Shown here: piece after piece, positions 21,006-22,050 of the stretch
Layout: each line of letters opens with the position of its first letter
How positions within the stretch are numbered: position 1 is the stretch's first letter
Assembly (NCBI RefSeq): GCF_045037415.1
Contig: NZ_CP173438.1
From: Escherichia coli
Lineage (GTDB): Bacteria > Pseudomonadota > Gammaproteobacteria > Enterobacterales > Enterobacteriaceae
DNA length: 64,000 nucleotides
Strand: one strand, 5' to 3'
Made by a program: the position numbers and the translations under genes
Notes under the pieces: generated by a model
Databases searched by the model: none
Told to the model about the DNA's origin: nothing
The model's input: the letters and a program-made list of their open reading frames with translations, nothing else

Positions 21006-22050
21006 ATGAGTGATTACGTAAATACTGGCGTGGAGGCGTGGAAACCTAATTTTTATATATCTGCTGATAATAAAAACATCACGGATAAAATAAGAAAAGG
21101 TTTGATCAATATCACGCTGACAGATTACGGCGGCTCCAGTAAACAGACAGACGAACTCCGCGTAGCAATAGTTTCTGAAACTCTGAAAATTCCGGCCCGC
21201 GGAGTAAAAATCAGTATTGGGCTCGGTTTCGGTAATCAGATAATTGATAAAGGGATATACATCGTTGACGGTGCTAGCAGTGGCGGTGAACCCCGGGTAG
21301 TTGATTTCACAGCAAAAGCGGCTCCGATGAACGCAGCAAAAGGATCTCCGACAGTTCAGAGCAAAAAGACTCGTTCCTGGAGCGACGTCACTGTCAGCGA
21401 TATCGTTGCGACAATAGCGAGCGATAATGGGCTAAAACCACGCGTATCAAAGCGGTTTGCAGACAATGTTATCACGCAACTCGATCAGGTCGGCGAGTCA
21501 GATATGCACCTGATGTCGCGGCTCGCAACGAGATTCGATGCGGTGAGTAAACCCGCGGGCGGGTACTGGATATTCCTGCCGCGCGGCGCGGGCGAATCTG
21601 TTAGCGGTGCTCCGCTCCAGCACTACACGCTAACTCGTCGTGATAACTCCAGCTGGGGCTATTCGAGAAATGGACAAAGTGGCGATAGTGGTAGCGGTGG
21701 CGAAAATCCGGAACCGACGTATCTGATTAAATATCACGACACAGCAACTGGGCAGATCAAAGAATTGCGGACAAGGTAGTGGCGGCGATCCTGTCATTGA
21801 ATGGCCGGCAGTTGAGCCGTCGCTCGACGCAGCGAAAGAAGCTGCACCAGGGCTCAAGGGCGGTGCAGCTAAAAAAGAGTTCTCTATGACGTACACGACG
21901 CCAGCGACGCTCGATTTAGTGTCGCTGACAGCAGAATGCAAAGTCACAACTCAAGGTTTCGGGACCGAGGAGGACCGGGACTGGACTATCAACACACTGA
22001 GTCTGACGCTCGCTGAAAACGGTTTTTCGGTTCGGCTGTCTCTGGAGTAA
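21006..22050 (+). pseudogene. tail protein D (P2 gpD-like) interrupted by +1 frameshift near 21770-21780; N part 21006..21779, C part in +1 frame to 22050
   Basis: 257-aa N part ends RTR-stop; adjacent +1 frame encodes GSGGDPVIEW... 90-aa C part typical of gpD. Confidence 0.7.

Follow-up and report, generated by a model that had tools for sequence, protein, structure and literature searches.

A single inserted base truncates the baseplate hub gene of the leuZ prophage in Escherichia coli ST131

Baseplate hubs of the type of P2 gpD, Mu gp44 and T4 gp27, together with the N-terminal hub of VgrG (PF05954), are described relatives of the gene considered here, whose product, judging from a structural model, would share their fold class and their role as a trimeric adaptor between spike and tube. 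In phiCTX and the R-pyocins, the genes run in the order sheath, tube, chaperone, tape measure, U, X, D. The same U-X-D arrangement ends the tail module of the R2-pyocin, whose hub (PDB 6U5H) gives a full-length structural match to the model of the gpD that we reconstructed (target-normalised TM 0.71), although the structure-based identity is only about 21%; the pyocin protein is intact, and the pyocin carries no head genes. Peduovirus gpD is about 30% identical to the reconstructed protein over the N-terminal 60%, and the latter, with 347 aa, does not reach the length of P2 gpD. Among isolated phages there is no close match, identities to the reconstructed protein reaching about 37% at most. 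A far nearer counterpart is the prophage at leuZ in the ST131 reference strain EC958 (gpD remnant EC958_RS10460, WP_001296153.1), which shares with the locus described below the AA allele, the order of its genes and the att site.

We analysed a stretch of 64,000 nucleotides from an E. coli genome (contig NZ_CP173438.1; hereafter, the window) that holds the late region of a prophage of about 42 kb, located at tRNA-Leu (leuZ) and adjoining yecA in E. coli ST131. In EC958, this prophage extends from an integrase beside tRNA-Leu/Cys/Gly on the pgsA side to yecA (NZ_HG941718.1, about 2,043,300-2,085,900). It contains repressor-like, replication, Q antiterminator, holin and endolysin genes, along with lambda-like head and P2/phiCTX-like tail genes, and its structural genes are all intact save gpD. 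Positions 1-60210 of the window equal EC958 except at two positions, both of which are GAGACC sites outside gpD. Unlike EC958, the window has interrupted genes for the capsid and for a 226-aa protein, as well as an extra integrase-bearing element in yecE. Since the match to EC958 stops inside yecE, and 60211-64000 holds an integrase gene (60229..61542, minus strand) and phage-like ORFs, this is an additional integrated element of the source strain.

The tail module of the prophage is ordered sheath, tube, chaperone, 546-aa gene, U, X, D, the genes upstream of X completing with X and D a T-U-X-D tail module (Table 1). The tail assembly chaperone ORF (18161-18551 region) ends at 18442, and the -1 frame is open from about 18400 until the next gene begins at 18551; the conserved programmed -1 frameshift (gpE/E+E') would be expected to have such a layout, and no slippery site for it was identified within 18161-18551. 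Between gpD and attR lies a 139-aa ORF (22217..22636; WP_001296152.1, 'hypothetical protein') that has a lipoprotein-type signal (LVGC) and no Pfam match, and looks like prophage cargo. The attR repeat overlaps the 3' part of tRNA-Leu (leuZ). ARAGORN found no tRNA in the window, and a tRNA-like stretch at 22773-22913 proved to be merely the attR copy of that 3' part.

Table 1. Positions of gpD, its lesion and the neighbouring prophage features within the window
Feature	Position	Strand	Basis
Truncated gpD (baseplate hub) frame	21006..21779	+	ORF list; annotation in CP023844 and EC958; protein cluster P0009
Lesion, AA for single A (1-nt insertion)	21773..21774	+	Alignments to three intact alleles
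Premature TAG resulting from the frameshift	21777..21779	+	Sequence
Displaced gpD C-terminal coding part, +1 frame, 91 codons (G257-E347) plus TAA	21775..22050	+	Translation
54-aa ATG-initiated remnant ORF within the displaced part	21886..22050	+	ORF list, record annotations, PHROG match
Tail protein X (gpX), intact, directly upstream of gpD	20790..21002	+	PGAP WP_000634205.1 mapped; ORF 20778..21002
Tape-measure-position gene (546 aa, PGAP 'hypothetical protein') and gpU-position gene (PGAP 'phage tail protein')	18551..20616	+	
attR, 125-bp direct repeat of the attL region, prophage right end	22857..22981	.	Second BLAST segment versus EC958; EC958 annotation

As read from the sequence and the ORF list, the gpD frame closes with ...ATC AAA GAA TTG CGG ACA AGG TAG (...IKELRTR*) after 257 codons. 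The +1 frame, which has no stop from 21727 onward, translates from 21775 as GSGGDPVIEWPAV...SVRLSLE* and ends with a TAA at 22048-22050. A preliminary description of this DNA had placed the stop of a gpD-like ORF at 21779 and the continuation of the +1 frame up to 22050, and both statements are exact to the base. It had also proposed an alignment with intact gpD genes to find the indel. We compared the window base by base with three intact alleles from the same prophage and locus, namely ON470604.1 from the phage collection and the chromosomes of Ecol_244 (NZ_CP019020.1) and SK0832 (NZ_AP046542.1). The indel is one extra A at 21773/21774: the window reads GGACAAGG where the intact alleles read GGACAGG, and the single A gives one continuous frame. 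In ON470604.1, this frame extends over 1,044 nt and differs from the window at one base, the displaced C-terminal part being identical downstream of the indel. The chromosomes of Ecol_244 and SK0832 show the same single-base difference, and both encode the 347-aa protein WP_001531766.1, annotated as 'contractile injection system protein, VgrG/Pvc8 family'. Taking the extra A out of the window sequence restores a 347-aa protein that is 100% identical to WP_001531766.1.

Native sequence makes up residues 1-256 of the 257-aa product, and residue 257, an Arg, comes from the frameshift. PGAP names this remnant (WP_001296153.1) 'hypothetical protein', and the corresponding protein cluster P0009 (257 aa) has 135 members. 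Some records annotate the 54-aa ORF of the displaced part separately, as 'hypothetical protein / Gene D protein'; it corresponds to PHROG 7984 (54 aa, function unknown; E 4e-40), a 'family' that has apparently arisen from annotating the frameshifted gpD. In two other genomes, NZ_CP135697.1 and NZ_CM190132.1, the match to the X-D region (20778-22100) is interrupted by IS1 and falls into two pieces spanning 2.1 kb, which is further, independent decay of the X-D locus.

The name gpD, given in the preliminary description, is borne out by profile and structure matches alike. The reconstructed 347-aa protein matches PHROG 52 'tail protein' (E 2.7e-94, residues 6-347), the pyocin R2 hub chain 6u5h_C (E 2e-22, residues 13-222) and, weakly in a direct scan, the Pfam family PF05954 'Phage tail baseplate hub (GPD)' (E 9.3e-5, residues 120-178), which is precomputed on nearly all homologues; an NCBIfam scan returned only VgrG_rel, far below the cut-off. 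These profile matches place the protein in the gpD/gp44/gp27-like hub family, and 100 of its homologues cover 92-100% of the query; a chance origin of the reconstructed frame can be dismissed. An AlphaFold2 model of the reconstructed protein, built on 58 sequences, has a mean pLDDT of 85 and a pTM of 0.77. Foldseek aligned it over its full length with 6u5h_A, Mu gp44 (1wru, 9ki1_G), 3cdd (the MuSo2 43-kDa tail protein), VgrG and T4 gp27, as well as with the P1, PVC and AFP hubs, the probability being 1.00 for 1wru, 9ki1_G, 1k28_D and several VgrGs. The predicted fold is thus of the gp27-like multi-domain type along the whole chain. The position of the gene agrees with this assignment, as gpD follows the tape-measure-position gene, gpU and gpX and closes the contractile-tail module at its distal end. 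Overall, we conclude that the protein is a baseplate hub of the gpD/Mu gp44/T4 gp27 type, a predicted trimer that would bind the spike (gpV) and nucleate the assembly of tube and baseplate. A member of this family would be expected to have a single frame of about 325-440 aa including the C-terminal part; the window frame ends at 257 codons, and the copy carried here is, on its sequence, a pseudogene of the hub family and not a functional member.

Two further genes of the window are also interrupted, and their lesions are of another kind. In the capsid gene (ORFs 8670..9125 and 9133..9705), the window has an inserted A at 9117 relative to EC958, which turns GAGACC into GAGAACC (9114-9120). At 10932, a G is deleted, turning GAGACC into GAACC (10930-10934) and splitting the gene of the 226-aa WP_000774516.1 into ORFs 10568..10948 and 10945..11247. 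Both genes are intact in EC958. Few genomes share the window alleles, 18 against 412 at the capsid site (of 430) and 7 against 412 at 10932 (of 427); at the latter site, sister assemblies of the 'Esc' series show GAGACC or GAGAACC. GAGACC is the motif of RM.EcoMI, with 100% of its adenines m6A in EC958 and GGTm5CTC predicted on the opposite strand (PMC4659465), and modification-induced errors in nanopore reads are among the matters documented in PMC11610603. We compared with EC958 nine assemblies from at least four sources: the 'Esc' series (chromosomes of 5,156,475-5,156,531 bp), 439 and 446 from Taiwan, one from Poland and one from Thailand. As many as 24 of the 26 differences fell in GAGACC or GGTCTC, and the forms were inconsistent at the same sites (GAGAACC, GAACC, GAAACC, GGAACC, AGAACC, GGTTCTC); the form of the window at both 9117 and 10932 occurred only in Esc3 and Esc25. 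Since both lesions sit in this methylated motif, are rare, vary among near-identical assemblies of the same strain and are absent from EC958, they are with high probability base-calling artefacts, judging from the pattern of differences. At further EcoMI sites (8760-8765, 10824-10829 and 7795-7800), the motif is unaltered in the window and miscalled in other ST131 assemblies, the forms being GAAACC, GGAACC or GGTTCTC; one such miscall in another ST131 assembly frameshifts an S49 peptidase gene.

The gpD lesion differs from these two in all three respects: it lies outside any methylated motif, shows no same-strain variability and is not absent from orthogonal technologies. Near-identical copies of the locus turned up in a megablast search that covered the phage collection and 5,426 complete E. 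coli genomes. The 80-mer centred on the gpD site was identical in 363 of the 432 complete E. coli genomes carrying it and had one difference in the other 69, these counts being identity bands of the 80-mer across genomes and not a per-genome phylogeny. Among the matches listed, nine of nine one-difference genomes span 79 bases and are annotated with the full-length VgrG/Pvc8-family product; the missing A was verified by alignment in two of them, Ecol_244 and SK0832, and two more distant relatives also have an intact gpD. In EC958, the frameshift allele is annotated as a CDS of 774 nt, and the AA allele is likewise present in the prophage records named in the preprint 10.1101/2022.06.29.498070. 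EC958 was sequenced by PacBio and checked against 454, and the published list of all PacBio-versus-454 discrepancies has no entry near the gpD site (PMC4134206).

The allele is also linked to other variants. A SNP at 18397, 3.4 kb upstream of the indel, splits the genomes 358:68, which is nearly identical to the split by the indel itself. Both intact-D genomes examined, Ecol_244 (a KPC-producing ST131 strain sequenced by Illumina plus PacBio) and SK0832, differ from the window and EC958 in sharing 15230C, 18397G and an additional TA at 27973, where the window and EC958 are one unit short in a TATATA run. In Ecol_244 alone, there is an extra A at 20768, upstream of gpX (ATCCATTTT versus ATCCTTTT). 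The gpD insertion is, in sum, genuine and inherited, with hundreds of genomes carrying it, and because SNP 18397 divides the genomes almost as the indel does, the comparison points to one inherited event that was passed to a large ST131 lineage including EC958. Of the structural genes in the window, gpD alone was found to be truly broken.

Could the extra A nevertheless have arisen in sequencing or assembly, as one of a series of systematic errors, and hide an intact gene? The window does hold systematic errors, those at 9117 and 10932 in methylated GAGACC, which vary among assemblies of the same strain. However, the gpD site is not a homopolymer and does not lie in GATC, CCWGG, GAGACC/GGTCTC or any other methylated motif reported for ST131 (PMC4659465); an error would, moreover, have to recur identically in 363 complete genomes from many laboratories, in EC958 with PacBio and 454 in agreement, and in step with a linked SNP, so that we regard this explanation as effectively refuted. 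Even less probable is that the stop marks a natural gene boundary, in a phage group making its hub as two polypeptides. Some records do annotate two CDSs (774 nt and the 165-nt ORF), and a PHROG exists for the 54-aa piece. Yet this ORF accounts for just 54 of the 91 displaced codons, and sister genomes that differ by one base encode 347 aa. Among the aligned homologues, 57 of 57 span the junction and cover at least 95% of C-terminal residues 258-347, with the motif IKELRTGSGG-DPV unbroken, contrary to the boundary that the preliminary description had allowed for. Clusters matching at E <= 1e-10 are mostly single chains of 325-442 aa with 92-100% query coverage; a few are partial or contig-end fragments (209-328 aa), and the sole 257-aa cluster is the frameshift allele itself. 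The intact alleles refute a two-polypeptide hub.

Explanations that accept the mutation and would spare the function are likewise improbable, in varying degrees. A leaky frameshift would consist of a rare +1 shift at AGG before UAG (ACA AGG UAG U), yielding a full-length hub with G257R, and the prophage could then remain weakly viable, as only three hub copies per virion are needed. AGG is the rarest codon of E. coli, and decoding is slowed when a stop occupies the A site, as in 'shifty stops' and +1 shifting of the prfB type. Furthermore, two of the three pairs made by tRNA-Arg(CCU) would survive a slip from AGG to GGU, and any +1 event within the 53-nt stretch in which the +1 frame is already open, from 21727, would restore the protein. 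Against this, there is no canonical slippery sequence in 21727-21779 and no Shine-Dalgarno stimulator at prfB-like spacing, and the two-frame layout is derived, all homologues and the sister lineage having a single frame; neither the slippery run with stimulator nor the conserved two-frame layout of a programmed ribosomal frameshift is found at gpD. We consider leakiness unlikely, and still more so a reversible, phase-variable switch toggling tail production. Both alleles do occur in closely related genomes (363 versus 69), but the site is the dinucleotide AA and not a repeat tract, the split mirrors that of the SNP 3.4 kb away (358:68), and the three further differences shared by both intact genomes examined are what one event, and not recurrent switching, would leave. 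For the four indels within 22 kb relative to Ecol_244, hypermutation of the region and selection against EcoP1/Eco31I-type sites were considered and rejected, since two of these are GAGACC artefacts, that at 20768 is private to Ecol_244, and only gpD is a lineage mutation.

The reading that we prefer is that a genuine single-A insertion, inherited in ST131, inactivates the baseplate hub of the leuZ prophage, and we put its probability at about 0.88. The hub gene, the last of the tail genes, has gained an A after codon 255/256, and translation therefore halts at the premature TAG, giving a product of 257 aa without the 91 C-terminal residues. In the model, the stop after residue 256 falls within a beta-hairpin, and the predicted losses are a strand (260-270), a helix (273-289) and four strands at 292-346, leaving 74% of the hub length. 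Such a hub could hardly complete the gp27-like fold; the baseplate, and hence the contractile tail, would not be assembled, and no infectious virions would form. The regulatory, replication, lysis and other structural genes of the prophage remain intact. Tail assembly is probably lost and the leuZ prophage, consequently, defective for infectious particles, although three hub copies per virion suffice, and low-level restoration of the frame could leave some activity. Our literature search on induction or virions of the ST131 leuZ prophage yielded nothing usable. Because the DNA 3' of the stop shows no difference from the intact allele, the inactivation may be regarded as a recent first step of prophage decay.

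These results also bear on the argument, made in the preliminary description, that a second broken essential gene strengthens the case for a decaying prophage or for a systematic sequencing problem. The two genes do not reinforce each other, because their lesions have different causes, gpD being an inherited mutation and the capsid lesion a GAGACC artefact. Decay stands, with one real lesion; a systematic problem exists at 9117 and 10932 and does not extend to gpD. A defective prophage remains the best reading, and it rests on one real lesion rather than on two or three. Real pseudogenes and base-calling errors at the EcoMI motif, lying side by side, can pass for one process, and counts of pseudogenes or of prophage decay drawn from long-read-only ST131 assemblies would be inflated at GAGACC sites. 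As for annotation, PGAP mostly calls the 257-aa remnant a 'hypothetical protein' and not a pseudogene.

One might suppose that the single A is a lineage-defining and possibly selected 'locking' mutation of pandemic ST131, or else that a +1 shift at AGG-UAG throttles the prophage without killing it. Both ideas, even taken together, are unlikely. If 'locking' were true, the 42-kb leuZ prophage would have been immobilised without tails, with its immunity, lysis and cargo genes kept. Overall, the gpD frameshift is ordinary prophage decay and offers little novelty, the allele being already present in hundreds of public ST131 genomes; a one-base frameshift in a tail gene is the textbook first step of such decay.
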